Origin: a phage
Length of the DNA: 64,000 nt
Reading direction: 5' to 3' (one strand)
Assembly (NCBI GenBank): GCA_027262695.1
Contig: GCA_027262695.1_4722.1
In this document: positions 2,798 to 27,348 of the stretch, piece after piece
Numbering within the stretch: the first letter of the stretch is position 1
Layout of the letters: each line of letters opens with the position of its first letter
Position numbers and translations under genes: made by a program
Notes under the pieces: model-generated
Seen by the model: the letters and a program-made list of their open reading frames with translations, nothing else
Databases searched by the model: none
Told to the model about the DNA's origin: nothing

Positions 2798-5059
2798 TTA
2801 CAATTCGAAATCTTCATCGATAACGCGTTGGGTTAGCACCTTGTCGCTGAAGAACTCCACCTTACGTTGATGGTATTTCCGATGTGCTTCAATCGACGTA
2901 CACACCAGATACCAGAACGTGGGTGTCATACCCTCGAACTTCCCTTTCAGCTGACGTAGTCGACCTAACACCTGAATGTTACCAGTTCTCGACCCCATCG
3001 CTAACGTCATGAACGTCATCACCAAGTCAGGAAGATCGATTCCTGTACCAGCCGATTTCACCGTTGTCACACTGATATCATTATCCAGTAACACCATGAA
3101 ATCTTCTTCAGCGGTATAAGGACCTATCTCCAACTCAGGGATACGTTCACTTAAGTAATGCGATAACGACTTGCACATATCAACGGTTGCACAATACACC
3201 AACATCTTCATGCCTTCCTGATATTGGTTCATGAAACCTTTGATAATAACCGTATAGATAAAGTTGAAATAGGCGAGTTTGAGTTGCTTATTCTTCATGA
3301 TAGACTGTTCGAATACCGTGTGAGAATAAGAACCTCCAAAGCCTTTGTATCGGACTTTATCCGTACTGCGTAGTCGATACGTCACCGCATTTACCGCGAT
3401 GTATTTCTTGTATTCACATTTCGCATAACGTGCTTCTTTCGGATACATCAAATACAGCATCCGCTCGATGAACGGATCGTCAGACACCGCCGTTGCCGAC
3501 AGATAAATGATTTCCGGAATATTCGCGTAACACTTCACTTTGAACAAGAAATGCAGAGCTTCGTGACATTCATCGTGGATTAACAATCCAATGCCTGTTT
3601 TCTCCCAGAACTCGACTGGATGGAAAACATAAGGTGCGACACAGTTGTTCTTTTCATAATCGGTTATATAACGCTGAAACATGTTCAGTGAGAATAACGC
3701 AATTTTGAAATCCAACTCACCTTGTTCTACCAGCGTCTGAAATTCCAACATGCTGTAACGAGGAATGTCGGGATGCGGTGGGTCAGACTGGGCTGTACCA
3801 CGTATCTCGATAACATCACCTGGTTCCATACCGAAGAAACTTAGCAGTGAGCTACGCCATCCAGGCATGTACCTCGGTGACAGAATGATGCCCGTCCGTA
3901 CACCACGTCGGAAGGTGATCTCCTGCGACATTGCGGTGTTGTGCGTGACGATATGGTCTTTAATAACATAAAGGCTTTCGTCGTTGTCCACCGTGATGCA
4001 ACGTGCCTTCGCTTTCACCGTCGGCACGATGCCGCCAATCGCTAAACCAGGAAGCGTGTTAACGGGAAGATCATCTGGAATCTCAATGCCGTCAGGAATA
4101 AGCTTAAGCAAATCGGAATGGTAAATTAATGTCTCCATCGTGTAACTATTGATGGGGCATTTATACGCGATTCCCCCTAACCGATAAGCCAACTCCCAGA
4201 CCTCGGTCATTATCTGCGAATCGGTGGTTCTGACCGCAAGGTGAGCCCACCCTTCTTCAACACGCAGTACGCAACGATCTTTGATGAGTTCTCTGAAACG
4301 ATCAAGACCCACGAGTTCTTTCGGTTCGTAAAGTCGGATTCTTACCGGACGAGATCGTGACGATCTGTCATTAAGACGTTCCATGATTTCACTCGTGCTG
4401 AGCACCTTGTCAGGATCCGTGCATTGCCAGAGATGATCACCACACGCTTCAACCATTCGTCCATCTTCAAAGAAGACAGCGTAAAGCTGAATATCGTCAT
4501 GATCAAAGATAGCAGTTACGTTCGTCGGTAAACCATCCGCGCCGATGACCTCATCACCCACCTGGAGCTCACCAATCGGCTTCCAACCGCTTGGAACCTT
4601 AACGGGTGTATGGAGAGCCAATGCTTTCCCAGACCCCGTGCCTGCGGTGTTTAGGCTCATTCTGAAAGGGGTATCCTTACCCCCATCCATGTACTCCAAC
4701 CATTCTTGCTGATCTTCACGCCACGGAAACTTCCAGTTCTTCACAAACTCCACTTCCTTACCTGGAACCGGATCGTGGTAAACGATTTCCAACCACTCCT
4801 TTCGAATTCCTCGAGAAAAGATAAAATCCAAAAACGACTTCAGCTGTTCACGAAGTAAGTAGACCTCGCTATAATCGCTTCTTGCTGCGGCGTAGGTGTT
4901 GATGGTATCGGTGACCATTCTCCGTGTACGAGGGTCGCGTCGTTTCCGTAGATGCAAACAACGGTCTCGAAGGTAATGGCCAATCAAATGGGCAAATCGA
5001 AGTCCGTATCCGCTCAGCTTCATGCCATGCGAGAAGACGTCGATACGAGCTAACTTCAT
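2798..5059 (-). CDS. SF2 DExH-box helicase precursor containing an intein
   Basis: Walker A 'AGTGSGK' followed after a 229 aa insertion by 'T'; motif II 'LLIHDECHEA', motif III 'LSAT', motif VI-like 'QVLGRLRQ'. The Arg-rich N-terminal 47 aa look non-coding-like, so the true start may be the internal Met near 4918. Confidence 0.75.
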   Translation of the reverse strand: MKLARIDVFSHGMKLSGYGLRFAHLIGHYLRDRCLHLRKRRDPRTRRMVTDTINTYAAARSDYSEVYLLREQLKSFLDFIFSRGIRKEWLEIVYHDPVPGKEVEFVKNWKFPWREDQQEWLEYMDGGKDTPFRMSLNTAGTGSGKALALHTPVKVPSGWKPIGELQVGDEVIGADGLPTNVTAIFDHDDIQLYAVFFEDGRMVEACGDHLWQCTDPDKVLSTSEIMERLNDRSSRSRPVRIRLYEPKELVGLDRFRELIKDRCVLRVEEGWAHLAVRTTDSQIMTEVWELAYRLGGIAYKCPINSYTMETLIYHSDLLKLIPDGIEIPDDLPVNTLPGLAIGGIVPTVKAKARCITVDNDESLYVIKDHIVTHNTAMSQEITFRRGVRTGIILSPRYMPGWRSSLLSFFGMEPGDVIEIRGTAQSDPPHPDIPRYSMLEFQTLVEQGELDFKIALFSLNMFQRYITDYEKNNCVAPYVFHPVEFWEKTGIGLLIHDECHEALHFLFKVKCYANIPEIIYLSATAVSDDPFIERMLYLMYPKEARYAKCEYKKYIAVNAVTYRLRSTDKVRYKGFGGSYSHTVFEQSIMKNKQLKLAYFNFIYTVIIKGFMNQYQEGMKMLVYCATVDMCKSLSHYLSERIPELEIGPYTAEEDFMVLLDNDISVTTVKSAGTGIDLPDLVMTFMTLAMGSRTGNIQVLGRLRQLKGKFEGMTPTFWYLVCTSIEAHRKYHQRKVEFFSDKVLTQRVIDEDFEL
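3938..4624 (-). mobile_element. Intein (229 aa, class-3-like: Ala1, block B Trp, block F Cys, block G Thr-His-Asn, +1 Thr) in the helicase P-loop
   Basis: Insertion lies exactly between Lys and Thr of GSGK|T. N-terminal block A-like 'ALALHTPV...GEL', block B-like 'EACGDHLW', block F-like 'ARCITVDNDESLYV', C-terminal 'IVTHN' then Thr. Removing it restores a canonical 'GTGSGKT' P-loop. No endonuclease-sized domain is evident. Confidence 0.6.
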
Positions 5060-7095
5060 AACGTGATTACATCCTCCGGTTTAGGTTCTTTACGCGGTAG
5101 AAGCATGTAGTCGATCGGATGATCTGGCTTCATGGTTGGGATATAACTGTTCGGGTTTTGGAACGCATCCAGTTGCTCTTGGTGAGCGAACTTCATACTC
5201 AAGGAGCGCATGTTCATGTTCTTCTTGAAGGTACTGAAATAACGAGTCGTTCCCTGTTTCGGCATGCGGTAATCTTTCGTGTGTGGTGAACGAATCATAC
5301 TCGCGTAGAGAATAACGTCCAGATGCGATAGATTCATTCGTAAACGTTGCGCACACAGACGATGCCAATAATACAGTACGTTGGCTACTTCTTCTGGTGT
5401 CGCTTCATCTTCCGAAAGGAATCCTGCACTGAACGAACCTTTCCCGAATTTGAATTCACGTTCGATTTCTTTTGCGTATTCCATCATGTTTTTATGGATG
5501 AGTGGCATCTGGAATAGCGTCCGTGAATTGTCCCAATGTTTCAAGTCGAAGATCACAATCCCGTCTGCTGTTACTTCCCAGCTATGGCGTTTGAGATAAC
5601 GGATAAACGCTTTGCTTGGTACAACAGGACGTCCACAGAAATCGAAATTGACTTTGAGTTTACGGTAGCTCTCATCTTTCCTGTCGTAAATCTCCATATC
5701 GCAAAGCGTCATGTTGAACAGACGTTGCGGGATAAGCGAACTGATCTCTTCCGCTTCAGCTACATCGTACAACATGTTCGCCAGACCGAGTTTCATCTTA
5801 ATCAGCACGTGTTTGCCTTTCAGCTCACGGGCTAATTTGATGTCGTTCATGTTCTGGCTGTAACGAAGGATATGTTGATATTCCGGCGGGATTGGTGACG
5901 TAGACACGGTGGACGAACCATCGTGATGTTTGGTCGAAAGAATGTTCTGGGTAACCTGTTGTGAACCTGTACGTGCTGAGCAGTCTCCGATGTTGTCGGT
6001 CAATGCAAAGTTATGGCTTAATTCACCATAGCACGTTGTACAGACACCAGCAGGATCAGAATGATGACAGTAACAAACGGAACGCATGTTCACAATGGTA
6101 CCGATCAATTCTTTCATGTGAGGCTGTATCGACAACAGCGAACCATCTTCACGTAAGATGAATCGACCGTGGAAACCTTTAAGATCGGTTTCATCACGTA
6201 TCGGCATCGGAATGGTTTCTCTGCTTCCACAGTCACCAGGGTGCAGACGCTGTACAACCGCCGTTGCGATTTGCAGCTCACGTCCGAAATATTCTGACTT
6301 CTTAATCTGCTCCTTGTTGAACAACAATGATTTTGCCGCAGAGCGACTTTCTTTCAAACTGTCTGGAAGCGAGATCAAGCCTGCTGCATACGACCGCATC
6401 ACTGGGTCACGGAAGATCTCCGAGTTGATATCGGTTAAGAAGCCACGCATCCCAATACACTGCAATACCTGTCCGATCGATACGTGTTCGGTTCTTACCG
6501 CACGTGCGATAGGGTTGGCATGCAATGTTTTATCGGTACTTAAAACTTTTGTTAGTTTCTTGTATGCGCTCTCAATACCTTCGCGGGTGGGTTCCGCTTC
6601 AGCGATGATTTTCTTCACTTCGGGATGTACGGTAATCTGATAAAAATCATCCGCACAGATGGTCGTTACGTATTCCTCCAACGCATACGTAAAGAAGTTA
6701 TAAACGTGGTTAAACATATCGAACAACGCTTTCCAGAGAACCTCACGATTCTCTTGCGGATACGCATACATGCATTGACGATAGGCTGCGCTTTGTAATG
6801 CAACGGAAGAACCTGCCGTAAACTTGCGTTTATCCACCAGGTTCTCTTTCGTTAACGGTGTCTCAGGATACATGCGATGTAAAGACCAATGCATGTAGCT
6901 AAAGAAAATGCGTCGCGCACGCAATTCATGAACACCATCGTCCATCTCGATATACACACGGTCATTAGGCTGTGCCCACTCGAACACCTCATCAACCGGC
7001 CAATGCATAAGCTCTCGCGCCCGTACACGGCGTTTCGTGGTGATCGTCTGTACTGTATTCATTATTTTTACTTTCCGATTAAGTGGTTTTATCAT
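5056..7095 (-). CDS. Multisubunit RNA polymerase beta-prime subunit, C-terminal fragment
   Basis: 'GMRG' (cf. E. coli beta-prime QLAGMRGLM); zinc-site-like 'RSVCYCHHSDPAGVCTTCYG' (cf. RSVVSCDTDFGVCAHCYG); trigger-loop-like 'GDCSARTGSQQVTQNILSTKHHDG'. Alternative start at Met12 (7060-7062). Confidence 0.7.
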   Translation of the reverse strand: MIKPLNRKVKIMNTVQTITTKRRVRARELMHWPVDEVFEWAQPNDRVYIEMDDGVHELRARRIFFSYMHWSLHRMYPETPLTKENLVDKRKFTAGSSVALQSAAYRQCMYAYPQENREVLWKALFDMFNHVYNFFTYALEEYVTTICADDFYQITVHPEVKKIIAEAEPTREGIESAYKKLTKVLSTDKTLHANPIARAVRTEHVSIGQVLQCIGMRGFLTDINSEIFRDPVMRSYAAGLISLPDSLKESRSAAKSLLFNKEQIKKSEYFGRELQIATAVVQRLHPGDCGSRETIPMPIRDETDLKGFHGRFILREDGSLLSIQPHMKELIGTIVNMRSVCYCHHSDPAGVCTTCYGELSHNFALTDNIGDCSARTGSQQVTQNILSTKHHDGSSTVSTSPIPPEYQHILRYSQNMNDIKLARELKGKHVLIKMKLGLANMLYDVAEAEEISSLIPQRLFNMTLCDMEIYDRKDESYRKLKVNFDFCGRPVVPSKAFIRYLKRHSWEVTADGIVIFDLKHWDNSRTLFQMPLIHKNMMEYAKEIEREFKFGKGSFSAGFLSEDEATPEEVANVLYYWHRLCAQRLRMNLSHLDVILYASMIRSPHTKDYRMPKQGTTRYFSTFKKNMNMRSLSMKFAHQEQLDAFQNPNSYIPTMKPDHPIDYMLLPRKEPKPEDVITL

Positions 7096-7170
7096 ACAGT
7101 GTATTCATTCCGTTGGAATTTACTCCGGGAGTCCCTTCCCTTAGGTTATATAGGTGTTAATATATCTCGG

Positions 7171-7656
7171 TTATCCTGCTTTCTTCTGAAGGCTATAAGG
7201 ATCCATCGCATCGGAGCGGTCGGCAACGATGGTAAGAATGAAGCCTTTTATCTGTCTCACTTCGGTAACCCGGAGTCCCCTATCGTTACGATAAACATTT
7301 TCTTCGCCGACCAGTTTTGGTCGAATAACATAAACCCCATCAACGAACGGAAACGTTGAATACGGATAAATACCAATACGAATAATATTCGGATGATCAC
7401 CTCGAGGGTCACGTCCAAACACATCAACTCTACCGTAAATCGTGCCGTCCGCACCTTCCACTTCAATAAGGTCGTTGCGAATATCCTGAAACAGTTGTTC
7501 TAAGGTCTCTGCGGGATATGTATAAGCGACGCCTAATGCAACATCCTCAATGGTCTTAACGCTAAATCCGTTAAGCCAAATAATCCGATCATCTGTCCAT
7601 GTTTCTTCATACGCTGTTAATCCGTCGCCGTATATGTTGGCGTGTGCTATCTCCAT
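7171..7656 (-). CDS. hypothetical protein (161 aa)
   Basis: ORF on the dominant strand; no recognisable motif. Confidence 0.5.
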   Translation of the reverse strand: MEIAHANIYGDGLTAYEETWTDDRIIWLNGFSVKTIEDVALGVAYTYPAETLEQLFQDIRNDLIEVEGADGTIYGRVDVFGRDPRGDHPNIIRIGIYPYSTFPFVDGVYVIRPKLVGEENVYRNDRGLRVTEVRQIKGFILTIVADRSDAMDPYSLQKKAG

Positions 7657-7768
7657 AATCTCATTTCCTCTTCTCTGTTAGGATAAATGACATGCTGGAT
7701 AACGTTGCCTTTGCATATATTGCTTTATTTCCGTCAGAAATAACGGAAAATAAAAACAACGGCATAAA

Positions 7769-7799
7769 CCCCTCCCACCACCACATGGGAGAGGGAGGG
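7769..7799 (-). terminator. Intrinsic terminator hairpin (CCCCTCCC / GGGAGGG)
   Basis: GC-rich inverted repeat just downstream of the minus-strand gene ending at 7806, with an A-rich tract at lower coordinates on the plus strand (U-run for the minus transcript). Confidence 0.5.
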
Positions 7800-7805
7800 T
7801 GTATG

Positions 7806-8168
7806 TTATTCTACATTATCTTCTACGGCTTCGGATTCATCCGCTTCTGCGAAGCTTTCCTGAACCGCAGTGGTATCCCAGTTCGCTGCGTAATCAGCCA
7901 TGGCTTCGCGCAGCGCTTCTTCACCCGCATCACCAGCCAGGTCAAGTACAACCAACCCTTGTGCGACGTTCTGCGCTACGGTATCGATAACCGTTGCATC
8001 CTCTTCAAAGCTACGTACCGGTTCAATGGTACCAACATCAACAGCGTAGTTCGTGGTTGCGGTAAGGACAGCAACCTGTAATGCGTTGCTGTCTTCGTCA
8101 TGAAGTGCTGCTTCAATACCGATTGGACGGGCCAGTTCTTGCAGTGTCAATTTACGAATTAAGTTCAT
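7806..8168 (-). CDS. small highly acidic protein (120 aa)
   Basis: Asp/Glu-rich throughout, e.g. 'EADESEAVEDNVE' at the C-terminus; no catalytic motif. Confidence 0.5.
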   Translation of the reverse strand: MNLIRKLTLQELARPIGIEAALHDEDSNALQVAVLTATTNYAVDVGTIEPVRSFEEDATVIDTVAQNVAQGLVVLDLAGDAGEEALREAMADYAANWDTTAVQESFAEADESEAVEDNVE

Positions 8169-8191
8169 TATGTCTTTTCCTCAGGTGAATG

Positions 8192-8620
8192 TTAGCAATC
8201 GTTTAAAACTTTTTCGATACGATGGTTGACAAGCTCATTGAACGACTCTTCTGCTTGTTCGATAATTTCATCAACGTCAATATCTAATCGTTGGGGTTGG
8301 ATGACGTGCTCTTTCATGGTTTCCAGCCAGTATTCGGCTTTAATCATGACGTTAACAACATGTTCAACCTGACTGCGTAGGTCGATAATCTGGCAATCAG
8401 GATTATTAATATCGATGACGTGTCCGTGGTGGTTGATAAACCCAAGCTTATTCGATGCTTTTACGGCATCGCGAGTAAGTTCTTGCAGGATTAACGCATT
8501 TACGTAATTCACTGCGACGGAACGATTTTCTTTATCACTCATACCAGGGATCCTCTTTAAGTGTTCACATTCTAGTGTTAAGCAGTTAAAATAAACCGTT
8601 CCTTTAATCAGCATAAACAT
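8192..8620 (-). CDS. hypothetical protein (142 aa)
   Basis: ORF on the dominant strand; terminator-like hairpin downstream. Confidence 0.5.
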   Translation of the reverse strand: MFMLIKGTVYFNCLTLECEHLKRIPGMSDKENRSVAVNYVNALILQELTRDAVKASNKLGFINHHGHVIDINNPDCQIIDLRSQVEHVVNVMIKAEYWLETMKEHVIQPQRLDIDVDEIIEQAEESFNELVNHRIEKVLNDC

Positions 8621-8649
8621 CCTCCTCCCACCACACGGGCAGGAGGAGG
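8621..8649 (-). terminator. Intrinsic terminator hairpin (CCTCCTCC / GGAGGAGG)
   Basis: GC-rich inverted repeat immediately downstream of the minus-strand gene ending at 8661. Confidence 0.5.
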
Positions 8650-8660
8650 CGTAATATGCA

Positions 8661-9098
8661 TCAGAAAGGAGTACGGTTCTTATATTCGAATAGTGTCTGG
8701 AGGACGCATCGCGTTAACGCGTTTTGTAATTCGATACGTCCTTGTTCCCCTAACAGATCCAACACCATCATCCCTTTTGCTGTTTTCTCTGCCACTTCTT
8801 CACAAATCCGTAAATTGTACACATCATCGTCGTCAAGCTCCTTACGACGGTCAGAGCTGAAACGCATCAGCTCACCTTGACTATCACGAACATCAGCGAA
8901 TGCTTCATAGGCTGCATCAATGTTCGCAGAACGCGTCAAACCCTCCGCTTCGCGCCATTCTCGGTATGTACCATCAAGCGTTTGTTCCTCGCCTGAGGTT
9001 GTTGATTCACTGTTGGTGGTTGGGCGAATTAAATGGGGTGTTATCATCGCTATTACGCTATCGTAATGCTCCATCGTATACCTCGTTAGCTTTCGCAA
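8661..9098 (-). CDS. hypothetical protein (145 aa)
   Basis: ORF on the dominant strand; overlaps the upstream gene end by 13 nt. Confidence 0.5.
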   Translation of the reverse strand: MRKLTRYTMEHYDSVIAMITPHLIRPTTNSESTTSGEEQTLDGTYREWREAEGLTRSANIDAAYEAFADVRDSQGELMRFSSDRRKELDDDDVYNLRICEEVAEKTAKGMMVLDLLGEQGRIELQNALTRCVLQTLFEYKNRTPF

Positions 9099-11254
9099 TC
9101 ATCAGCATCGATGATCTGACCACCAGCAACGTTCAACTGATGATACAGAATCCTCAACGCACGGTTACCCCCAATGGGATACTTCTCGAAGTTGGTCGCA
9201 ATCGGAATCGCAGAGGGTTTGTCGGTTGCATAGATGCTTTCCGTGATGCTATCCACCTGTTTCGGGTTGTTCGCGTAATCCATGAATACGCTTGCGAACC
9301 ATCCACCGGCAAAGGCGGTGACTTCGCGATGCTCGGATTCACCACAATAACGTGTCGGTTGCTCTTTACCCGGCGAACTGTACTTATCACTGTTGCTGAG
9401 TTTCGACGGCAAACCGTGTGCTTGCAGTTTAGGAATACCCACCGCAGACCAATCGTTCGCTGTCTTCTCCAACATCATGATGTATGTATCACCAATCGCA
9501 ATATCGTTCTTGGTGGTTCGCCATTGGCCAGAACGTCCACGATAGCGTACTGGACCTTTCTTCAACGGGAACTCTCGGATTAGGTTCTCCATACGTTCCG
9601 AACCTGCTGCGATACTGTCTGTCGGAATATAGACTTCCGTACCGTGGCGTTGTACGTAACGGAGATGATCCCATTTATCTTCGTCTGTGATACAGTGCTT
9701 CTCAACAACCTGTTCCACAAACTCAGGACTAACAATATAGTAGTAACGCATCAATGTGTTCCATGCGGTTTCCAGATCGCCTGCATCCATTACTGGTTTC
9801 AGTTCACGCATAATCTGATCACCAACACCGTTGATATAAGGTGCGTTAACACGGCTTAAACTCATCCTTTTAATTACCGTGCTGTCGTCGAACATAAAGT
9901 CCGCGACATTCCCCCATTGGTCTACGGGCATCTCGTCATCTTCCATGATATCCGTTACGACGAATTTATCACCTGCCATACCGGTAAATTTAAATCCGAT
10001 ACCCGGGACTACATCGTAGGTATACGTGATAGTCACACGCCAGTCGTCAAGATTCTCCTTACGGTAATCACGGGTTGGCAACACATGACGTAGCTGACCG
10101 TTCGGATTGCGAATATCGATACCGTGCTCAGCATCAGCGAGGTTCAACCACCACATCACCGTCTGATGATGTCTGATGGGTGTACCAGCACGTTCACGTT
10201 CGTATTTACGCACCGCATCCTGAATACGGGTATACAGCAGACCGATGGCGTTCTCATATTTCAGGAATTGACGATACGGCGGACGCATCTTCTCTTCCAT
10301 CATAATCGCACGCTCACGGGCTTGACGTCCAGAACGACGATGGCGATCACTAACCACATCGATATCCGTCACACGCGCATTCGGTTCTGCGTAGGTAAGG
10401 TCATCGTAAACGTAGTCGACACGCTGCAGGTTGCAGGTCATCATGTCGACGACGCTCAGAATCGGATCGATTTCACGGGTTGCTGCTAACAGACCATCTT
10501 TACGAATACGTTCACCGTTCTCCGGGATTGCCTGATAGACCTCATCGTCGCCGTAGAGATTAATCGGATACCTCGACTTACCTGACGTGATCGTCCGTTT
10601 CTCGATACCGGTACTGGTGAAGTGTTTCAGTACGCCACGACGGGCAACACCCCCATCCTCAATACATTGATAGAAACTCCCAAAACACACCTTGCAATCA
10701 CGTCCGTAGCCCCACTCACGCGTTTCTTGATTGATCGCCGGGCTTTCCATCAAACGAGAGTATCGAGGTACGATCTGGCCTCGACGAAGGGAATGGAACA
10801 AATTGGTGGGTCGAAAACGGAAACCGTACTGCTGATGCATGATGTGATGCTCGGGCACTTCAAGCAAGCGCAGCTCATGGCGGTTACCATCTTCTTGGTT
10901 TTCATACAGCACGTAATGCATCGTGTTTGTCTTGATGCTATTCGCGGTATGCCCAGGTTGAAAACGTGGGATGATATCTATGACGCGAGATTCAACGGGG
11001 AATTCTACCGACCATGTATTCTGACCATACTGGTATTCAATCCCCGTCGTTAATCGGGACGGCTTCGCATCTTTGATAACCAACGCTTGGCTAAGATGTC
11101 CACCAAACATCGCAGCGCGCTGTGCTGAGTTATAATGCAATAGCCCGTTAAGTCCAGTCCCTACACCCGTATACTCCTGTTTAATGGGAATGATTTTACC
11201 TTCAGCGATTGCCTGCTTCACAGATTCATAAAGAGGTTTTTCTTTATAATGCAT
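9086..11254 (-). CDS. Multisubunit RNA polymerase beta subunit, C-terminal fragment
   Basis: 'NSAQRAAMFGGHLSQALV' (cf. [16 protein letters not shown]), 'KFTGMAGDKFVVTDIMEDDEMPVDQWGNVADFMFD' (cf. [36 protein letters not shown]), 'RYCGESEHREVTAFAGG' (cf. RFGEMEVWALEAYGA). Start trimmed to the ATG at 11252-11254, preceded by a GGAAG RBS; the track start at 11419 would overlap a divergent plus-strand gene. Confidence 0.7.
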   Translation of the reverse strand: MHYKEKPLYESVKQAIAEGKIIPIKQEYTGVGTGLNGLLHYNSAQRAAMFGGHLSQALVIKDAKPSRLTTGIEYQYGQNTWSVEFPVESRVIDIIPRFQPGHTANSIKTNTMHYVLYENQEDGNRHELRLLEVPEHHIMHQQYGFRFRPTNLFHSLRRGQIVPRYSRLMESPAINQETREWGYGRDCKVCFGSFYQCIEDGGVARRGVLKHFTSTGIEKRTITSGKSRYPINLYGDDEVYQAIPENGERIRKDGLLAATREIDPILSVVDMMTCNLQRVDYVYDDLTYAEPNARVTDIDVVSDRHRRSGRQARERAIMMEEKMRPPYRQFLKYENAIGLLYTRIQDAVRKYERERAGTPIRHHQTVMWWLNLADAEHGIDIRNPNGQLRHVLPTRDYRKENLDDWRVTITYTYDVVPGIGFKFTGMAGDKFVVTDIMEDDEMPVDQWGNVADFMFDDSTVIKRMSLSRVNAPYINGVGDQIMRELKPVMDAGDLETAWNTLMRYYYIVSPEFVEQVVEKHCITDEDKWDHLRYVQRHGTEVYIPTDSIAAGSERMENLIREFPLKKGPVRYRGRSGQWRTTKNDIAIGDTYIMMLEKTANDWSAVGIPKLQAHGLPSKLSNSDKYSSPGKEQPTRYCGESEHREVTAFAGGWFASVFMDYANNPKQVDSITESIYATDKPSAIPIATNFEKYPIGGNRALRILYHQLNVAGGQIIDADDCES

Positions 11255-11285
11255 AGGACTTCCTATTATCGAATTGAGGTACGTC

Positions 11286-11639
11286 ATGTCTAATACGCCC
11301 CTGAACGACTTCCTTAAAACAAACCCAGAAGACCTCATCCACAACCTTGATTTCAGGAACGTTGTTGAGATGCATCTGGAATATTTCAAAAATGCCGGTT
11401 TGGTTTCTACGATAGACATACCACCCGAACGCGCCTACGAATTCGATGGTAACTTTTATGGATTATGTCGGGTTATGCTTGGCGAAGGCAGTGAACCTAT
11501 GCACTGGGTTACCCTAAGAATCAACGGTTATCGTGATCCTACGGAATACACCGCCGATGTCCTAACGATGAAGATTGTCGATTCAAGCGCCATCAACACG
11601 TTAAAACAGCAATATCGCACAATCCACTACAGCGCTTAA
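11286..11639 (+). CDS. hypothetical protein (117 aa)
   Basis: Plus-strand ORF with a GAGGT RBS and its own downstream hairpin terminator at 11645-11673; divergent from the RNAP beta gene. Confidence 0.45.
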   Translation: MSNTPLNDFLKTNPEDLIHNLDFRNVVEMHLEYFKNAGLVSTIDIPPERAYEFDGNFYGLCRVMLGEGSEPMHWVTLRINGYRDPTEYTADVLTMKIVDSSAINTLKQQYRTIHYSA

Positions 11640-14629: not shown

Positions 14630-16216
14630 TTATTTTTTTCCTCTTAAATTTACTACATGTTCATTTAATCGAACAACTAATTGCACAAGCTGCTGACGGA
14701 TATCTGCTGGGCAAAGCATCAATCCTTTACGATCAGCGGGGACTTTCTCAAGGATTTCAGGGCCTGCTGCTGAAACATCCCAATCCCATTCACAAAACGC
14801 ATCGGCTACCATGTTAATACCGACAACCGGTAAAGTTGTACGTTCATCTTCATACATGGCATGCGGATACAATTTATTGACGGTAATAATCTCCTGTGGT
14901 TTTAATTGGTGGATAATCTGATAAACATCATCACGTTTAACCTGGATGCCTACGGTTAATGCGGCCAGTTGAGGGAAACCCCAATGGTCTAACAAGCATG
15001 CCGCAATCGCTAACGCTTTTGCCTGATGCACGGCTTCAATCGGTGCCAGACTTCTCGCCGGAAGATGGCTGTCCAACAACCATTGCGCCAGTGCTCGGCA
15101 TCCGCGATTGATCGGTTTTAACTCAACGGTATCATCATGCTTCGCGTAAGTGTATCCATCGTAACGTTTTGCGATACGCGCATACATGTCTTCAACCTTA
15201 CCGTACGGTGCGGTTTCATCAACGTCGTGTAACACCCGTTCCATCTGGGTAAGATAAGCGATATCAAGAATGAGTACACGTGGTGAACGTTTATCTTTCA
15301 CCATCAGCGCATCAATCACACCTTGGCTATCTTCATCTTGCGCATTCCCTCGCGGAGTTTTCTCACGTATGGGTCCGCTGAAACGACGTTCCGTACAGAG
15401 GTTATTCACATAACTGAAAATCAGCGTCACCAGATGCGTACAACTGACCAACACCCCATCTTTAACGACGGGCTGCACGGCTTGGTCCAAATCACGTACC
15501 GCAAGGCGTCTGACGATGGCTTGCGAACGCAACCAACCCGGCACTTTTTCTGTTGACATGTAATCCACGGTCATCGACAACGTGATCTTTTTATCGCCTG
15601 TCTGTGCACGGATATAGTCTTCCAGTCGGTCATAAGCTGCGATATCATGAATGCGTGTTTTATACATCAGCGACATCGCCACTTCTTCTTTACGTACTGT
15701 CCCGTACGTTTTCCCCGCATCAATCAGGAACTCAGCCCAGATAGGCACCATCAAACGAACGTAAATCGCTAACGCGGTTAACTCAACATAATCGTTTCGT
15801 AAATAGGTTTTCTCTGGGATATCATCCTCGCCTAATGTCGTTTTCATGTCTGGCGGTAATTTTACCCAACCTGGGGTATTACACAACGCCAGAATCTCTT
15901 CGTATACAACGGGTTTGTAGATTTCGCCAACGGCGCGACTCAGCTCCTCCATTTGTTGTTGCGGTGCAATGTAATTATCCATCGCTTCACGTGCTTTAAC
16001 GAACCCTTCAAAGATATCATCGGTTCGACGTGGGTTCTTTTGCTCTATCCAGGCAAGATACTTGTTAATCTCTCGCATCTGATTGCTGGCCATATCCCCA
16101 TCGATCTTGATATAACCTTGGCCTGAAAATTCCACGGTCCGTCCATCACGATGTTTGATAAGATAATGGTCTAGCTTTTCTTTGCCTTGCGTCGTAATGA
16201 CGGGCACAATGTGCAT
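14630..16216 (-). CDS. hypothetical protein (528 aa)
   Basis: Long ORF with an AAAAGAGG RBS and the conserved 11-mer about 50 nt upstream. Confidence 0.55.
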   Translation of the reverse strand: MHIVPVITTQGKEKLDHYLIKHRDGRTVEFSGQGYIKIDGDMASNQMREINKYLAWIEQKNPRRTDDIFEGFVKAREAMDNYIAPQQQMEELSRAVGEIYKPVVYEEILALCNTPGWVKLPPDMKTTLGEDDIPEKTYLRNDYVELTALAIYVRLMVPIWAEFLIDAGKTYGTVRKEEVAMSLMYKTRIHDIAAYDRLEDYIRAQTGDKKITLSMTVDYMSTEKVPGWLRSQAIVRRLAVRDLDQAVQPVVKDGVLVSCTHLVTLIFSYVNNLCTERRFSGPIREKTPRGNAQDEDSQGVIDALMVKDKRSPRVLILDIAYLTQMERVLHDVDETAPYGKVEDMYARIAKRYDGYTYAKHDDTVELKPINRGCRALAQWLLDSHLPARSLAPIEAVHQAKALAIAACLLDHWGFPQLAALTVGIQVKRDDVYQIIHQLKPQEIITVNKLYPHAMYEDERTTLPVVGINMVADAFCEWDWDVSAAGPEILEKVPADRKGLMLCPADIRQQLVQLVVRLNEHVVNLRGKK

Positions 16217-16418: not shown

Positions 16419-17207
16419 TTAGAATGCTAAGCCATCAAAGGCGATTGACGGATCATCATCGTCATTTGCGCTAGGCGCGTCCCAACGCGTGTCAGGGGCT
16501 GCTGGAGCCGAACTTGAGGCATTAGAGTTACCGTTGTACTGGCCGTTACCAGCATTACGGTTACCGCCACCGTTGTTATTGTTACGATTGTAGCTGTTGT
16601 TACCATTACTTACGCTACGGCTTTCACCGTCAAAGTTGGTTGCGAGGATGCTTGGTAACACCGCACGATGAATACGTACGAATTCCAGCGCACAAAGCGG
16701 AGAAACAACACCGATCTGCAAAGGTTGTCCAGACTCATCAACCAAAGCGTGGAAACGCGGTGGTTTGAACACGAATTGGATGTTCGGTTTTTGGTATGCG
16801 GTTACCGCGATGTACACCGAACCATCGTCATTCTTACCGACCCACGTTGTGCTCTCGGTAATCTGCTTTTTCTTACCTGGGTTATTGCGATCATCGATAA
16901 CCTTTTCGTTCTTCATCGCAAAGCGTTGACCAGGTTTACCCTTAGCAACCTGCTCAAGGATCGCCAGTAGGTTATAGAACGCGTATGAACTCATGCGTGC
17001 CCAAATGCTTTCAGCACGACCCTGTTGGTCTTTACGTCCTGTATAAACCGTAATACGTGGTTGATTTTTAGCGACGCTAATTTTCAATGATGGAATTGAA
17101 TTACCGCCCTCAACCTTCTCGTCCGCCCACAGTTTCCAGTTGTTGTCGTCATAAGCCGTAGGAATGATATTTCCTTGTGGTTTACTGCCCGAATTCCAAT
17201 TGCTCAT
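16419..17207 (-). CDS. putative ssDNA-binding-like protein with Gly/Asn-rich linker and acidic C-terminal tail
   Basis: Globular N-terminal about 190 aa, then 'NGNNSYNRNNNNGGGNRNAGNGQYNGNSNASSS' and a C-terminal 'NDDDDPSIAFDGLAF'. The architecture resembles bacterial SSB; this is inference from architecture, not from an OB-fold alignment. Confidence 0.3.
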   Translation of the reverse strand: MSNWNSGSKPQGNIIPTAYDDNNWKLWADEKVEGGNSIPSLKISVAKNQPRITVYTGRKDQQGRAESIWARMSSYAFYNLLAILEQVAKGKPGQRFAMKNEKVIDDRNNPGKKKQITESTTWVGKNDDGSVYIAVTAYQKPNIQFVFKPPRFHALVDESGQPLQIGVVSPLCALEFVRIHRAVLPSILATNFDGESRSVSNGNNSYNRNNNNGGGNRNAGNGQYNGNSNASSSAPAAPDTRWDAPSANDDDDPSIAFDGLAF

Positions 17208-23118: not shown

Positions 23119-23356
23119 TTAGCATTGGTTATTGATTGCTTCTATTTCATCGATATACGGTTCTACGTCATCGCCCTCCACGAATTCGTTGAACCAACAG
23201 TCAATCGTTGAGATAACCGGTGACTGATGTTCACATTTCTTAGATACCTTAAACGGAACGTTGTTATCCATCATACCGAGTTCGGGTCGGAATCGCCCGA
23301 AATGTTTCGCAGTCCAAATGTCTGGGACGATATGGTTGTTCATAGCGTCTCCGTCG
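23119..23356 (-). CDS. RNAP beta-prime N-terminal subunit, downstream exon (boundary approximate)
   Basis: The frame upstream of the annotated Met reads 'SDGDAMNNHIVPDIW...GMMDNNVPF', matching beta-prime 'DGDQMAVHVPL...LMMSTNNILSP' immediately after NADFDGD. The 5' boundary depends on the 3' splice site (candidates 23356-23370). Confidence 0.55.
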
Positions 23357-24248
23357 CTGTTTGTCGACTATATCTTCATCTTCATTGCGAAGAGACTCTC
23401 GTTTGGGTTTGTGTTTAACAAAGCCTACTCTACTCAACATCGCGTCTTTCGATAGTCTGTGAGCACACATCTTAACGAATATTCGTGGGTTCCTACAGAC
23501 AGGTGAATATTCTTGTTGAGATGCTTCGCTGCGGATTATTCCCGTCCTACCTCTTTTACCATACCCAGTTCATTACGCTGGCCCTCATCGATGTCACCAT
23601 GATGAGTTGGTGTGTAGTCCGATTACAGAAACTTCCCGTCAATTAGAGAGTTTTAACTATGCTCCTGTTACCAGGAACCAGATCCCGACGGTATCAATAA
23701 ATCAACGTAAGTTATTGATTTAATTGAAAAAACTGAAATCTGCATTATCTTAATCTTCGATATGGTTCGCTAAGCCATATCCGCACATACGTGCAGCTTA
23801 CGTCTTTCACGTAAGAAGAGACTATATCTTTCACCCTCAGCTTTACCTGTTAGGGGCTCCCATTTCGGCGGTCGTTTGACCGGTGGTTTCCCACGCCGCT
23901 TGGCCCTAACGCCCGTGAGCGATAGTCGTTGAGCACATCTCCGTTCTGGAGACTTCGCTGCGGATTCCTCAATCCTTACTGCTTTTACCGTACCTGAATG
24001 ATTAGTTCAGCCCCACGCTCTGTTCCCAGGCATGGTTGGTGAGCAAGGCTCTAAGTAGGTTCCCGCTATTAGAGAGTTCCTCGTGACAGCATTACTGTGT
24101 CACTGGGCCTAATGACCCTTTCAAGATCATCACGCTTAACCCGATGGTGTTATCCTGCGGGTCGCGTTTAACCTTGGTGATTTCAAGACATTGGTTACTG
24201 CTACGGTCAAGTGATGGATTTCGAACAAAGCCACACACAATCCCATCG
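23357..24248 (-). ncRNA. Two tandem ORF-less group I intron cores inside the beta-prime N-terminal gene (boundaries approximate)
   Basis: Minus-strand elements for core 1: P AATAGCGGGAA (24060-24070), Q AATCCGCAGC (23957-23966), R GCTCAACGACTATC (23921-23934), S AAGATATAGTC (23820-23830). Core 2: P AATTGACGGGAAG (23632-23644), Q AATCCGCAGC (23528-23537), R GCTCACAGACTATC (23451-23464), S AAGATATAGTC (23366-23376). Stops in all frames; no ORF over 70 aa. Confidence 0.65.
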
Positions 24249-25357
24249 AACGGTGTATCAGCAATAAGCTCGTCATGCAGCTCGCTCATCATCGGATGAT
24301 AATTGCGGACATGCTCTGCAACGAACGCACGGGCTGCTCTTGGTGAATAACCACGATGGAATAACTTGGATTGGATATGTTCTTTATTGGTTAGTGTAAA
24401 TGGTGCGTACGGAAAATGCAGATGATAATAACGATGGTTTGCTGTTATCGAACTGATGACCGTACGTGTGGTGAATGGATGTAATGTACCTAATATGTTC
24501 TTACGTGTGATCCCTTTCTTCTTACCAATGAACTCATCGAAAATCGCCGAGTGATACTGCAACAGCTTCAATTGCACTTTCGCCATCCAGTTTTCTTTCT
24601 TTCTGGCGCTTAGTGGCGTGGTTGGATGATAGATGCTATTCAATGTTCCGATGGCGTCTATCGCACCTTCCATTTTGCTGTCAGCGTAACGTCCTGTTGG
24701 CGTGTTCTCGATCACGAACATCATGGCTGCAGGAAAGCTGATGTACTGACTGAAGAATTTATCCCGATGAATACGGATGAATTCGCGTAGCGTATCAACC
24801 TTCTCCATGTTCTTCGGTCCACGTAGTGTGGGTCCTTTATACAAGATCTCCATGATACGATCGAAGTTCTGTATAAAGCTATTTATACCGCGTCGTATTC
24901 CGAATACATCGAATTGCTGTTCCAGATAGTTCTTAAGTTCGATCGGTCGTTTTACGTTCGGACGGTAACTGGCATCAATGAGCCACGTCATCGTTTCAAA
25001 GCTTTTGATATTCAACTCGCTTGCCAGCACGAGATGGACCAACGGGTTAATGAACGCATCGATACCTTCCGGTACGCGCGCCCAGACCGTTGAACGAATC
25101 TCTTGTTCTGCTGGATAAGTGACAACCGTTTTACAGTTCGGGCACACCGTCCCTAATAACTCACCGCGATTATAGAAACCACAACCGCATTGCGGGGTGA
25201 TATCCAAGGTATCGCTCGAGTAAACACGGGTGATGAAACTGTTTAATTTCTTCTTCTCTTCCACGACCTTCGTATCATAATCGTTCAACAATATCGGCGT
25301 AAAAGGAAGTTCTGCGAGCTGTCTATCGAAACTGACGATATCGAGCATGATGGCCAT
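24249..25357 (-). CDS. RNAP beta-prime N-terminal subunit, upstream exon (3' boundary approximate)
   Basis: Zinc ribbon 'CGCGFYNRGELLGTVCPNC' matches the spacing of E. coli beta-prime 'CLCGKYKRLKHRGVICEKC'; 'HPMMSELHDELIAD' resembles 'HPLVCAAYNAD'. The ORF reads on into the intron ('TPFDGIVCG...') to a stop at 24092. Confidence 0.6.
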
Positions 25358-25449: not shown

Positions 25450-27348
25450 TTAGAACAGGTTGAATGCCCCGCCCATGCCGTTACCGCCCACATTCGGACG
25501 ATCGTTACGTGCGTAGATGTTGCCGCTGATGGTACCCAGACCGCGAGCACGTGCTGCCATGTTACCACGAACAGCGGTGCCTGCCAGATGCTGGATGTTC
25601 TCAGGACGGATGGTGAAGCCTGCTTCAGCAGCCGCTTCAATCAGTGCCTGCAACGCCAGCGGATCGAAATCATAACGCATCGCCCAGCCGGTTTGTTCCC
25701 AGCTACCAGACAGAACGCGGTCGATGATTTCGTGACGAGCAACCACACGCTGAGACATCGACATATCGGTACGGTCGAAGCTGTCTTCCCAAGCTTCTAC
25801 GGTATCCGGGTTGGTGATGTTCATCATGTACAGATCGTCCATATCACGAATATCGTGACGGTTACCGTCCTGGTGGTTGTAGTGACCCAGCGGGATACGG
25901 TTACCGGTCGCGTAGACCAGCGGTGAGCCGTACGGATATTTCTTGCTGAAGCAACCCAGGGTAACATCATCGAACGCACGGAAGAGGGCTTTGTAGCCTT
26001 CGGAGTATTCCTGTACGTCCCCTTCAACATTACCCGAGAAGATCTTCTCAGCCGCCGGGATCATACGCAGCAGCCAGCTGTACTCGCCTTCTTCTGGTAC
26101 ATCGATAGAGATCAGCAGAGACGGATACAGAACCTGTTGCAGGAACTTGTAAATCTGCTCGTTGGTTTGCGTAGACAGATCCAGCGGTGCAGTCACTTCA
26201 GGATCCAGCACCATCGCCAGAGCACCTGGGTTATGCGGACCAATACCACGAGCCGCGTTGCTGATTAAAGACTGTGCCCATGCCATGCCGCTGTTCAGCG
26301 TAGCGATGGTACCAATCAGACCCAGCACGAAGCTGTTCGGCGTGAACGCATCCAGTTCCAGCGGATACATGCTGGTCATTACGTAGCGCGGCTGGTACTG
26401 AACAGTTGGCGGTACCGGATAACCGTTAACCAGAACAGGACCTTGCTGGAAGGTCGGGTTCTGCGGGCTGTAGGTCAGATCGATATAACCGGTGGATGCA
26501 ACCAGACGCTGCTGGCTATCGTAATCGCCCATCGCTTGACGGATGCGGTTAGAGATAGTTACAGTAATGTCGGAGCGTACCGGGTTACCCGCGATATCAC
26601 TGTCCTGCATGCCGCTGGTGTTATACTGAACGCTGCTGATCGGCTGGTCGCTTGCCATCATACCCAGGTTGAACTGAGGCAGGCCCAGTCTGTCAGCAAA
26701 ACGCATTTCGGTTGCCGTCTGGATCGCGTTATCTGCTGCAGACAGCAGGGTGGTTGCCAGATGCGCAGATTCAGCAGTGATTTCATTGGTCACAACAGCC
26801 AGACCAGCGATACGTACCGTACCGTTGGCTTTACCACCGATAGCCGCATACATCGCTGCCATGACTTCGTTGATGAACGTGCCGTTCAGGTTATCCACCC
26901 AAGTACATGGTACCAGGATGTTACCGTGAGGACCACGTTCTTCACGACGTGGCAGCGGAGCCAGGCCAGCAACCAGCGGAAGGACGTAACCGAAGAAGTG
27001 GTTATGATCGCCCACTTTTACACCGCTCATCACAACCAGGGTCGGATACGGTACGCTGTACTGGTTCGGGTCAACCGCAACAAAGATGAAGTCGTCTTTG
27101 AACTGGGTATCTTCCAGATATTTCTCCATCAGACGACGGAGATTCAGTACCTGCTCGGAGCCGGTATTACGGCTGATACGACGGCTCAGTGTACGGTTGA
27201 TCGTACGCATCGTATGAGTTACTTTAGGACGGTCAGCAAAATCTGCAGCGGTTTCGACCGCTTCGTTAGCGCGCTGCGCCGCGCGGGTTTCAGCTACGCG
27301 GATGTCTACGTTATCGTTACCGTTATTGTTACGTACGTCTAAGCCCAT
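25450..27348 (-). CDS. chmA: candidate chimallin (phage nucleus shell protein) / abundant 632 aa protein
   Basis: The 632 aa size matches known chimallins; the gene lies immediately upstream of the beta-prime N-terminal gene (the gp54-gp55 arrangement of phiKZ as I recall it) and within about 8 kb of PhuZ. It has an AAGAGGA RBS and the conserved 11-mer upstream. No alignment was performed. Confidence 0.45.
   Translation of the reverse strand: MGLDVRNNNGNDNVDIRVAETRAAQRANEAVETAADFADRPKVTHTMRTINRTLSRRISRNTGSEQVLNLRRLMEKYLEDTQFKDDFIFVAVDPNQYSVPYPTLVVMSGVKVGDHNHFFGYVLPLVAGLAPLPRREERGPHGNILVPCTWVDNLNGTFINEVMAAMYAAIGGKANGTVRIAGLAVVTNEITAESAHLATTLLSAADNAIQTATEMRFADRLGLPQFNLGMMASDQPISSVQYNTSGMQDSDIAGNPVRSDITVTISNRIRQAMGDYDSQQRLVASTGYIDLTYSPQNPTFQQGPVLVNGYPVPPTVQYQPRYVMTSMYPLELDAFTPNSFVLGLIGTIATLNSGMAWAQSLISNAARGIGPHNPGALAMVLDPEVTAPLDLSTQTNEQIYKFLQQVLYPSLLISIDVPEEGEYSWLLRMIPAAEKIFSGNVEGDVQEYSEGYKALFRAFDDVTLGCFSKKYPYGSPLVYATGNRIPLGHYNHQDGNRHDIRDMDDLYMMNITNPDTVEAWEDSFDRTDMSMSQRVVARHEIIDRVLSGSWEQTGWAMRYDFDPLALQALIEAAAEAGFTIRPENIQHLAGTAVRGNMAARARGLGTISGNIYARNDRPNVGGNGMGGAFNLF

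Follow-up and report, generated by a model that had tools for sequence, protein, structure and literature searches.

The nucleus-forming phages (Chimalliviridae) have two multisubunit RNA polymerases (msRNAPs), a published feature that is common to the group. In phiKZ the solved non-virion enzyme (nvRNAP) consists of gp55, gp68, gp71-73, gp74 and gp123 (PDB 7OGP, 7OGR, 8QUE and 9RJS). The subunits of the virion enzyme (vRNAP) were given as gp78, gp196, gp205, gp207 and gp210 in a mass-spectrometry paper on the virion of Escherichia phage Goslar, PhiPA3 gp211/209 has been annotated and published as similar to phiKZ gp178 (the vRNAP beta), and gp273/274 of phage 201phi2-1 was identified by mass spectrometry as a virion protein. 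The vRNAP beta gene of PhiPA3 is moreover interrupted by the mobile group I intron gp210 (Birkholz et al., bioRxiv 10.1101/2023.09.30.560319; Science 2024). A further split beta/beta' msRNAP of a jumbo phage, like the one described below, is the nvRNAP of the AR9/PBS2 type (PDB 7S00); it is much more distant from our proteins than the phiKZ nvRNAP, and the matches to it are weaker, though still significant (beta C with E = 4e-17, beta' C with 5e-14, beta' N with 1e-7). To our knowledge, AR9 is not a chimallin-encoding phage of the Goslar/phiKZ-like lineage.

Here we analysed a 64-kb stretch of phage DNA (hereafter the window), which is colinear with the genome of Goslar at 86-88% nucleotide and 97-100% amino acid identity, encodes chimallin, PhuZ and further chimallivirus genes, and contains no tRNA genes. 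Its source is a close relative of Goslar, an uncultivated Goslar-like chimallivirus, that is, a nucleus-forming jumbo phage of enterobacteria. The best explanation of the data, to which we give a probability of about 95%, is that this phage encodes two separate split msRNAPs, one virion and one non-virion, and that their beta-like proteins are ancient paralogues. Homology, overlap, orthology, intron signatures and purifying selection were computed for this reading, and virion packaging, temporal roles and subunit stoichiometry were taken from the phiKZ and Goslar literature. According to that literature the vRNAP would be packaged in the capsid, enter the cell with the injected DNA and transcribe the early genes, and transcription of the middle and late genes, within the phage nucleus, would fall to the nvRNAP. 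Every polymerase gene and intron described below lies on the minus strand, and Goslar gene numbers were cross-checked through gp246, its chimallin.

Subunits of the two polymerases

Clear orthologues of four of the five phiKZ nvRNAP subunits were found in the window, and these would be the N-terminal half of beta', the sigma-like fifth subunit, the C-terminal half of beta and the C-terminal half of beta'. The division of beta' into N and C pieces and the separate beta C piece are as in phiKZ, and both the DFDGD motif and the lysine pair of beta are retained, at an amino acid identity of only about 30-40%. The C-terminal half of beta' (positions 5056-7095; orthologue of phiKZ gp74 and Goslar gp165) matched PHIKZ074 (7ogp_D) over residues 22-665 against 4-671 with E = 1.2e-85 in a phmmer search of PDB sequences, in which it also matched AR9 7s00_D and bacterial beta' at about 733-976. 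The same protein matched PHROG 3015 (E = 2e-169) and is 96.7% identical to Goslar gp165, with 189 synonymous versus 22 non-synonymous codon differences; the true start of its gene is likely the ATG at 7062, as in Goslar. The C-terminal half of beta (9086-11254, 722 aa; orthologue of phiKZ gp71-73 and Goslar gp171) matched PHIKZ071 (7ogp_C) with E = 5.4e-86 in the phmmer search and is 99.6% identical to Goslar gp171, with 232 synonymous versus 3 non-synonymous differences. The mechanical open reading frame of this gene is longer (9086-11419); the start at 11254 adopted in the first-pass annotation holds, as both Goslar gp171 and a 100%-identical protein from a database (P0007, 722 aa) begin there.

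The fifth, sigma-like subunit (14630-16216; orthologue of phiKZ gp68 and Goslar gp175) had been missed in the first-pass annotation. Residues 23-518 of this reading frame matched PHIKZ068 (7ogp_B and 9rjs_B) with E = 1.2e-27, a match obtained with a concatenated query (positions 977-1472), and the protein is 99.6% identical to Goslar gp175. No homologue of gp123, the N-terminal beta piece of the nvRNAP, was found among the eight window reading frames screened against the PDB, and its gene presumably lies outside the window, gp123 being far from gp55-gp74 in phiKZ. The N-terminal half of beta' is encoded by an interrupted gene (23119-25357), whose product matched PHIKZ055 (7ogp_A, E = 9.4e-60) and whose exon 1 matched PHROG 2987 (E = 1e-113). 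The identities that the first-pass annotation had given to the two beta' fragments thus stand, the fragments at 5056-7095 and 23119-25357 matching the gp74 and gp55 chains of 7OGP, and they are complementary halves of one enzyme, the nvRNAP. The same annotation had held that the assignment of fragments to enzymes was not decidable from sequence; orthology to experimentally characterised subunits does assign them, and the beta' pieces of the vRNAP lie outside the window.

As for the vRNAP, the window would encode about 660 residues from the C-terminal end of the large beta-like subunit and a small gp210-like subunit, in the same synteny as in Goslar, and the counterparts of the remaining subunits (gp78, gp196 and gp205 of Goslar; gp80, gp149 and gp180 of phiKZ) lie outside it. 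The interrupted gene at 61551-64000 is, by its sequence relationships, the orthologue of Goslar gp207 and phiKZ gp178, the vRNAP beta. Its first exon (63152-64000), the 5' part of which extends beyond the window edge, ends in ...ALAVPAADRDD, matched positions 778-1050 of PHROG 3148 (E = 1e-92) and is 89% identical to Goslar gp207 at the nucleotide level. The second exon (61551-62690; PKRLVFIGIQHNRM ... GMGDKGTFAAQAK ... stop) matched positions 1065-1422 of the same family (E = 3e-114) and shows 72 synonymous versus 4 non-synonymous codon differences from Goslar. The predicted spliced product is 98% identical in amino acids to gp207 and about 39% identical (E = 3e-139) to the gp178-type genes of phiKZ-like phages, homologues were present in 310 phage records, and the C-terminus lies about 60 residues beyond the second conserved lysine. 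A phmmer search with the spliced fragment against PDB sequences yielded spurious weak matches only, the copy of the PDB used holding no virion RNAP chain. By extrapolation from Goslar, this gp207-like protein would be packaged in the virion. The orthologue of Goslar gp210, the reported fifth vRNAP subunit (59026-59736), was likewise missed in the first pass; it is 100% identical to gp210 in amino acids, with 50 synonymous and no non-synonymous differences.

With Pfam, neither the window fragment of the virion beta nor full-length Goslar gp207 gave a match even at E = 10, nor did beta' C, beta' N or the helicase, and the non-virion beta gave a sub-threshold match to PF00562 only, a domain carried by its homologues. 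In comparison with Goslar, synonymous differences far outnumber non-synonymous ones in all the polymerase pieces (for example, 232 versus 3, 128 versus 2 and 50 versus 0).

Predicted group I introns in the beta and beta' genes

Two of the polymerase genes are interrupted, as are the gp55-type and other RNAP genes of phiKZ. If these interruptions marked the beta gene at 61551-64000 and the beta' N gene as decaying pseudogenes, the phage would be left with one functional polymerase. The size of the interruptions (several hundred bases) and the in-frame stops at the insertion boundaries are what such decay might produce, and the insertion called intron A below falls under the Rfam gathering score; the structure of the insertions and the condition of the exons nevertheless make this reading very improbable.

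The group I intron of the virion beta gene (62691-63151, 461 nt) has no endonuclease reading frame and follows directly after the DD codons, the equivalents of E. coli RpoB D674-D675. Its score against the group I model RF00028, 51 bits, exceeds the gathering score of 50, and its longest stop-free stretch is 81 aa. The boundaries were placed as given because the intron-less gp207 allele of Goslar shows an exact insertion and because of the rule of U at -1 and G at the 3' end, and removal of the intron restores DRDD-PKRLVF. We found by eye no convincing P1 guide for this intron. An identical break point exists in PhiPA3, 201phi2-1, Haymo and FishSpeaker, and that of EL falls within the same short stretch; in PhiPA3 it is the same vRNAP beta gene that is interrupted, at the same insertion point after two conserved aspartates, the PhiPA3 intron carrying an endonuclease, unlike that of the window. 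Beyond core elements, the window intron shows no extended similarity to known phage introns.

The catalytic motif DFDGD of the beta' N gene is split by two predicted group I introns in tandem, in contrast to the one endonuclease-bearing element of the phiKZ nvRNAP gene. Exon 1 (24115-25357), 99.3% identical in amino acids to Goslar gp247, ends in ...GLSVMILKG and the first base of a Tyr codon, a junction taken from the comparison with Goslar. It is followed by intron A (23749-24114, 366 nt, without a reading frame), which Goslar lacks and which is cleanly inserted; the base at -1 is U, the 3'-terminal base is G, and a P1 (GGGU/GCCC) can be read. Intron A scored 26.9 bits against RF00028 (E = 1.9e-4), under the gathering score, and its core resembles introns of Bacillus and Pseudoalteromonas phages. 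Next comes a 13-nt micro-exon (23736-23748; ATAATGCAGATTT) that was located by comparison with Goslar, encodes the (Y)NADF of the catalytic motif, and differs from the uninterrupted Goslar exon at third codon positions only; it is required if YNADFDGD is to be read in frame. Intron B (23357-23735, 379 nt, without a reading frame) scored 49.2 bits (E = 4e-11), just below the gathering score of 50, and is 92% identical to a Goslar intron core annotated as Intron_gpI, the Goslar counterpart differing in that it also carries the HNH endonuclease gene gp186. Its 5' site was chosen because DFDGD is thereby reconstituted and because the P1 exon and guide covary, with GACUU/GAGUC in Goslar and GAUUU/GGAUC in the window as a compensatory change. 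The P1 proposed by Rfam for this intron was rejected, as the 5' splice site would then follow an in-frame TAA. The last exon (23119-23356) begins C GAC GGA GAC GCT ATG... and completes ...NADF-DGDAMNNHIVP. Under the predicted splicing the coding sequence comprises three exons (1494 nt, 497 aa) and encodes YNADFDGDAM, which matches NADFDGD at 458-464 of E. coli RpoC and DFDGD at 417-421 of phiKZ gp55.

Comparison with alleles that lack the introns supports both A and B. Close relatives of intron A or of the virion-beta intron were not found in the phage collection, which returned short core matches only (among them 31 nt identical to the core of the T4-type td intron, and about 70% identity to Bacillus and Vibrio phage introns). 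The splicing of the three window introns is predicted here from their sequence, and the evidence for it weighs against pseudogene decay: the insertions score 51, 49.2 and 26.9 bits with the group I intron model, each is preceded by U and closes with G, and once they are removed the conserved motifs DFDGD and DDPKR are restored in frame. In intron B, P1 and the exon covary. The flanking exons, with 72 synonymous versus 4 non-synonymous differences, 74 versus 9 and 97 versus 3, are under strong purifying selection. Moreover, an intron occupies the site after the DD codons in PhiPA3, whose intron and endonuclease have been the subject of experiments, in 201phi2-1, for which splice-junction reads have been reported, and in other phages.

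Paralogy of the two beta-like proteins

The presence of two polymerases rests on whether the two beta-like segments cover the same part of beta, as the first-pass annotation had claimed from NMQRQAVP-like and GRHGNKG-like regions in both. The minus-strand reading frames and the motifs are present at 9086-11254 and at 61551-64000. The NMQRQAVP-like stretch NSAQRAAMFGGHLSQALV of the non-virion protein (aa 42-59, nt 11131-11078) and the stretch ALAVPAADRDD | PKRLVFIGIQHNRMIAA of the virion protein (nt 63184-63152 and 62690-62640, joined by predicted splicing) both correspond to E. coli RpoB 673-691, HDDANRALMGANMQRQAVP. The two-lysine, GDK/GNKG-like stretch FKFTGMAGDKFVV of the former (aa 421-433, nt 9994-9956) corresponds to RpoB GDKMAGRHGNKGV, and GAGMGDKGTFAAQAKS of the latter (nt 61784-61737) to RpoB 1063-1075. 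Two conserved lysines, 8 residues apart, are found in both proteins, and those of FK...GDK in the non-virion beta align to RpoB K1065/K1073 and phiKZ K386/K394.

We compared the two families by their profiles. An hhalign alignment of the two (probability 95%, E = 2.8e-8) extends over 357 columns and pairs residues 266-643 of the virion-beta fragment with 26-479 of the non-virion beta. The virion-beta profile, built from a shallow alignment (7 sequences, Neff 2.3; a word-indexed homologue search gave 6 relatives), matched Thermus RpoB with E = 6e-11 and E. coli RpoB in the collinear stretches 512-577, 651-783 and 1039-1103, of which the first and third are individually weak (i-E about 0.04 in a two-sequence search), the strong support coming only from the middle stretch and from the whole-sequence score against Thermus RpoB. 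The non-virion profile mapped on E. coli RpoB 659-837 and 990-1241, and the single non-virion sequence matched RpoB 1063-1241 with E = 0.005 (phmmer against the PDB). Neither beta profile matched RpoC.

These results bear on the possibility that the two segments do not overlap and complement each other as parts of one split beta, in which case the phage would have one polymerase only. These phages as a rule have split beta and beta' genes, and direct BLASTP between the two proteins was not significant (E = 0.28), which might naively hint at different parts of beta. Against this, the profile-profile overlap reaches 357 columns, and both proteins occupy the same RpoB intervals (~651-783 and ~1039-1103), including HDDANR/NMQRQAVP and GDK...GNK. 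Furthermore, the product of 9086-11254 has its orthologue among the chains of the solved nvRNAP, an enzyme complete without a gp178-like chain, and the orthologue of 61551-64000 is a virion protein in Goslar. We regard a single split beta as more improbable still than the decay of the interrupted genes. Nor does a recent duplication or recent capture of a host rpoB fragment, specific to this phage, deserve more than the slightest credence. Nothing specific speaks for it beyond its being a possible route to paralogues, the two proteins have separate sets of orthologues in hundreds of jumbo phages from many host genera, their likeness to one another and to RpoB is revealed by profiles only, and both beta genes are syntenic with Goslar.

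The reading with two distinct split msRNAPs of the phiKZ type, proposed in the first pass, is thus borne out by the overlap of the paralogous beta segments. Because BLASTP between them is not significant, and likeness between them and to bacterial RpoB is seen only via profiles, their divergence is considered ancient. Both proteins would contain the double-psi-barrel core of beta, and each enzyme would then have its own active-site beta half. The split point of beta would also differ between the enzymes, the non-virion beta C beginning just before the HDDANR region (RpoB ~650) and the virion piece crossing that region to end near RpoB ~1130.

Intron polymorphism and significance

In the non-virion beta' gene introns sit at four different sites within 31 nt of the stretch that codes for YNADFDGDAM, and the occupancy of these sites differs among four Goslar-like genomes whose exon-1 proteins are 99% identical. 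Sites 1 and 2 are occupied in the window, site 2 (with an HNH gene) and site 3 in Goslar, sites 1, 2 and 3 in genome L013 (the intron A site with a score of 30.3 bits), and sites 1' and 3 in genome L012. The result is micro-exons of 13 or 18 nt, one of which codes for exactly DFDGDA. The site after the DD codons of the virion beta gene is empty in Goslar, holds an intron without a reading frame in the window and in genome L015, and in genome L014 holds the same intron with a 403-aa NUMOD/HNH-type reading frame. A probable intein was also observed in the P-loop of the helicase.

The possession of two RNA polymerases is already known and ordinary for Chimalliviridae; finding it here changes nothing, the hallmark being published and the window proteins being 97-100% identical to those of the studied phage Goslar. 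The value for annotation lies in the assignment of each RNAP fragment to its enzyme, the addition of the gp68-like and gp210-like subunits, and corrected gene models with the predicted splicing; in the RefSeq record of Goslar, the beta' N gene is missing both its second intron and the 13-nt micro-exon for DGDA.

For the study of mobile introns and of competition between phages, the polymorphic group I introns clustered exactly on a catalytic motif, with micro-exons of 13-18 nt, may be of interest. Mobile group I introns may be contending for the sequences that encode the catalytic centres of the two polymerases, a tentative view to which we give somewhat less than even odds. If, as shown for PhiPA3, the introns act as weapons and immunity between co-infecting phages, this clade would be a natural system for intron-driven interference, and it would also lend itself to the study of correct splicing by several ribozymes around micro-exons that barely supply the P1 and P10 pairings.

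Two beta subunits and two RNA polymerases

The first-pass annotation held that the beta-like genes at 9086-11254 and 61551-64000 are paralogues, and we compared both with bacterial RpoB. A profile of the virion-type beta protein and six homologues matched bacterial RpoB chains in the PDB (E 6e-11 for Thermus), most strongly in the HDDANR/NMQRQAVP region (E. coli 651-783) and with weaker, collinear stretches in the GPGGL region and at GDK...GNKG, which places it at 512-577, 651-783 and 1039-1103 of E. coli RpoB. The profile of the non-virion beta protein with 22 homologues was placed at 659-837 and 990-1241, and RpoC was matched by neither profile. Aligned with each other (95% probability, E 2.8e-8, 357 columns), the profiles paired residues 266-643 of the virion-type fragment with residues 26-479 of the non-virion beta, both motif regions lying inside. 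The segments therefore overlap, on RpoB and on each other, rather than covering separate parts of beta, and the observation of paralogy stands.

All four ORFs listed earlier are present on the minus strand. In the first beta gene the mechanical ORF reaches 11419, and the start previously chosen, 11254, is also that of Goslar gp171 and of P0007, a 722-aa database protein 100% identical to the product of 9086-11254. This protein carries the NSAQRAAMFGGHLSQALV motif at nt 11131-11078 (-) and the FKFTGMAGDKFVV motif at nt 9994-9956 (-). The second gene is interrupted, relative to the uninterrupted Goslar gp207, by 461 bases (63151-62691), the removal of which joins ...ALAVPAADRDD and PKRLVFIGIQHNRMIAA... 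in frame; its downstream part carries the GAGMGDKGTFAAQAKS motif at nt 61784-61737 (-). The suggestion that both proteins share a GRHGNKG-like region needs a minor correction, in that GMGDK in virion beta corresponds to RpoB PGDK (K1065) and the GRHGNK counterpart in the virion protein is FAAQAK (K1073); the two double-psi barrel lysines are kept in both paralogues with a spacing of 8 residues.

The fragments had been considered impossible to assign to one enzyme or the other from sequence, a view that we revise because orthology to characterised enzymes allows the assignment. The non-virion RNA polymerase (nvRNAP) of phiKZ has gp55 and gp74 as beta' pieces, gp71-73 and gp123 as beta pieces and gp68 as a sigma-like fifth subunit, and its virion enzyme (vRNAP) includes gp178, gp149, gp180 and gp80 (PMC8287921). 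The product of 5056-7095 (-) matched gp74 (7ogp_D, E 1.2e-85), that of 9086-11254 (-) gp71-73 (7ogp_C, E 5.4e-86), that of 24092-25357 (-) gp55 (7ogp_A, E 9.4e-60) and that of 14630-16216, missed in the first pass, gp68 (7ogp_B, E 1.2e-27). The two beta' fragments are accordingly complementary halves of one enzyme.

The intron-containing beta gene is, by orthology, a vRNAP gene. The protein predicted after splicing shares 98% identity with Goslar gp207 and ~39% (E 3e-139) with the counterpart in phiKZ-like Pseudomonas phages, and homologues occur in 310 phage records. PhiPA3 gp211/209, annotated as similar to phiKZ gp178, has been described as the gene of the vRNAP beta subunit, and 201phi2-1 gp273/274 was identified by mass spectrometry. 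Five vRNAP subunits, gp78, gp196, gp205, gp207 and gp210, were detected in Goslar virions (2026 preprint, Goslar virion); the gene numbers there are those of RefSeq, in which gp246 is chimallin. As the ORF at 59026-59736 encodes a protein 100% identical to Goslar gp210 and 61551-64000 is gp207-like, two vRNAP subunits are encoded in the window. The beta' genes of the virion enzyme are located beyond it; in Goslar, gp205 is found directly upstream of gp207. Paralogy and orthology together uphold two split, phiKZ-like multisubunit polymerases.

The points at which beta is split differ between the enzymes. The nvRNAP beta C piece starts ~40 residues ahead of the HDDANR-like stretch, and the vRNAP piece runs from far upstream through the HDDANR region to ~60 residues past the second lysine, so that the rest of beta would have to come from another virion subunit. 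Codon differences from Goslar, counted by gene piece as synonymous and non-synonymous, amounted to 232 and 3 in nvRNAP beta C, 128 and 2 in the gp68-like gene, 97 and 3 in exon 1 of nvRNAP beta' N, 189 and 22 in nvRNAP beta' C, 74 and 9 in vRNAP beta exon 1 (the part within the window), 72 and 4 in its exon 2, and 50 and 0 in the gp210-like gene, a synonymous excess that argues against pseudogenes.

Group I introns in the polymerase genes

The insertion at 62691-63151 (-) is a group I intron (51 bits in Rfam, against a gathering score of 50) located directly after two aspartates equivalent to RpoB D674-D675. Local tblastn found the identical homology break in PhiPA3, 201phi2-1, Serratia phage Haymo and Shewanella phage FishSpeaker. 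Pseudomonas phage EL is an approximate match only, since its upstream alignment stops ~15 residues sooner, although the downstream one restarts at this point. The same site was reported for the intron of PhiPA3, the endonuclease of which, gp210, cleaves phiKZ gp178. Comparison of the window (62691-63151, -) with pieces of related genomes (L014 925-2181, L015 and L016) showed the site to be polymorphic in the Goslar clade: Goslar has no intron, the window's intron, in which we found no endonuclease ORF, recurs likewise without an ORF in IMG/VR contig 3300045988_173921 (L015), and in IMG/VR contig 3300011560_000001 (L014) the intron contains a 403-aa ORF with NUMOD1, I-TevI-type and HNH-like domains. 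A run of 31 nt in the window's intron (62728-62758, -) matches without a mismatch the td (thymidylate synthase) group I intron core of numerous T4-like phages infecting E. coli, Shigella and Yersinia, and no longer match turned up. One more group I intron is annotated in Goslar between gp206 and gp207 (L003 4818-5246; 211817-212245), in a part not covered by the window, which stops within its gp207 homologue; gp206 resembles the phiKZ gp179 endonuclease, an arrangement that mirrors phiKZ gp180-gp179-gp178.

The nvRNAP beta' N gene (23119-25357) contains two tandem predicted group I introns (Rfam, 49.2 bits, E 4e-11 and 26.9 bits, E 1.9e-4, both under the gathering score). Comparison with Goslar and the need to restore the catalytic motif define the exon structure on the minus strand: exon 1 runs to 24115 and is separated by intron A (24114-23749) from a micro-exon of 13 nt, ATAATGCAGATTT (23748-23736), after which intron B (23735-23357) precedes the last exon, starting at 23356. 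The predicted spliced product of 497 aa reads ...ILKGYNADFDGDAMNNHIVP.... The exon/guide pairing of intron B shows a compensatory change, GACUU/GAGUC in Goslar versus GAUUU/GGAUC in the window. In Goslar itself, intron B carries the HNH gene gp186 and is followed by a micro-exon of 13 nt, CGACGGTGACGCT (DGDA), and another intron ahead of ATGAAC. Its RefSeq record divides the gene into gp247, gp186 and gp185 with one intron marked; the micro-exon (L002 7202-7214; NC_048170.1 ~168201-168213) and second intron (L002 6848-7201; ~167847-168200) are unannotated, which leaves the DGD of the catalytic motif out of the deposited proteins.

Comparison of the window (23357-24114, -) with Goslar (L002 6848-8646) and two related genomes, L012 (5251-5976) and L013 (5243-6364), revealed four distinct group I insertion sites within 31 nt of the stretch coding for YNADFDGDAM, occupied differently across the four Goslar-like genomes. 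L013 has three introns in a row with two 13-nt micro-exons, the length also found in the window and Goslar, and L012 has two introns around an 18-nt micro-exon, GACTTTGACGGTGATGCC, coding exactly DFDGDA. That phiKZ RNAP genes can carry introns is already known in general terms; a literature search, which was not exhaustive, found no description of this hot-spot.

The source phage and a probable intein

Escherichia phage vB_EcoM_Goslar was the sole megablast match to 5056-11419 (100% coverage, 86% identity), and by blastn the entire window is colinear with the Goslar region at 85-92% identity, broken only by a few clean indels. Chimallin is encoded at 25450-27348 (PF25677, E 1e-25), and synteny with the Goslar annotation places PhuZ, DNA polymerase, terminase, tail sheath and other genes in the window. 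A protein identical to the 9086-11254 product is encoded by a 161-kb metagenome scaffold (ENA ERZ28634109) and also by a 247.7-kb contig. From this colinearity, the chimallivirus genes and the metagenome occurrences we therefore infer an uncultivated Goslar-like chimallivirus as the source, which at ~86-88% nucleotide identity is probably a separate species in the genus of Goslar. The ORF at 16419-17207 (-), adjoining the gp68-like gene, is a homologue of Goslar gp176, named ChmC in the literature, an RNA-binding protein associated with chimallin. In the BspA-like leucine-rich-repeat gene (ORF 111-1451, homologue of Goslar gp161) a stretch of ~660 bp (548-1205, +) has no detectable nucleotide similarity to Goslar between flanks 87-92% identical and is thus a segment that is locally hypervariable or has been replaced.

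The SF2 helicase gene (ORF 2798-5059, Goslar gp164 homologue) carries a 229-aa in-frame insertion (3938-4624, -), absent from Goslar, that is probably an intein. It falls exactly within Walker A (GTGSGK / ALALHTPV...IVTHN / T), begins with Ala, ends in HN followed by Thr, and has Trp, Cys and Thr at the positions of the class 3 intein WCT residues. Hint-domain matches were weak (E 0.007 and 0.03), and unrelated terminase, primase and loader PHROG matches also land on it.

Standing of the two-polymerase set

The two-polymerase set is standard equipment of the Chimalliviridae and already known, and this genome's proteins barely differ from Goslar's; the finding is therefore confirmed rather than new, and of low interest as such. 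Only the polymorphic intron cluster and the probable helicase intein might deserve to be followed up. By analogy with the family, vRNAP would enter with the injected DNA and transcribe early genes, including those of the nvRNAP subunits and chimallin, and nvRNAP would next transcribe later genes within the phage nucleus.
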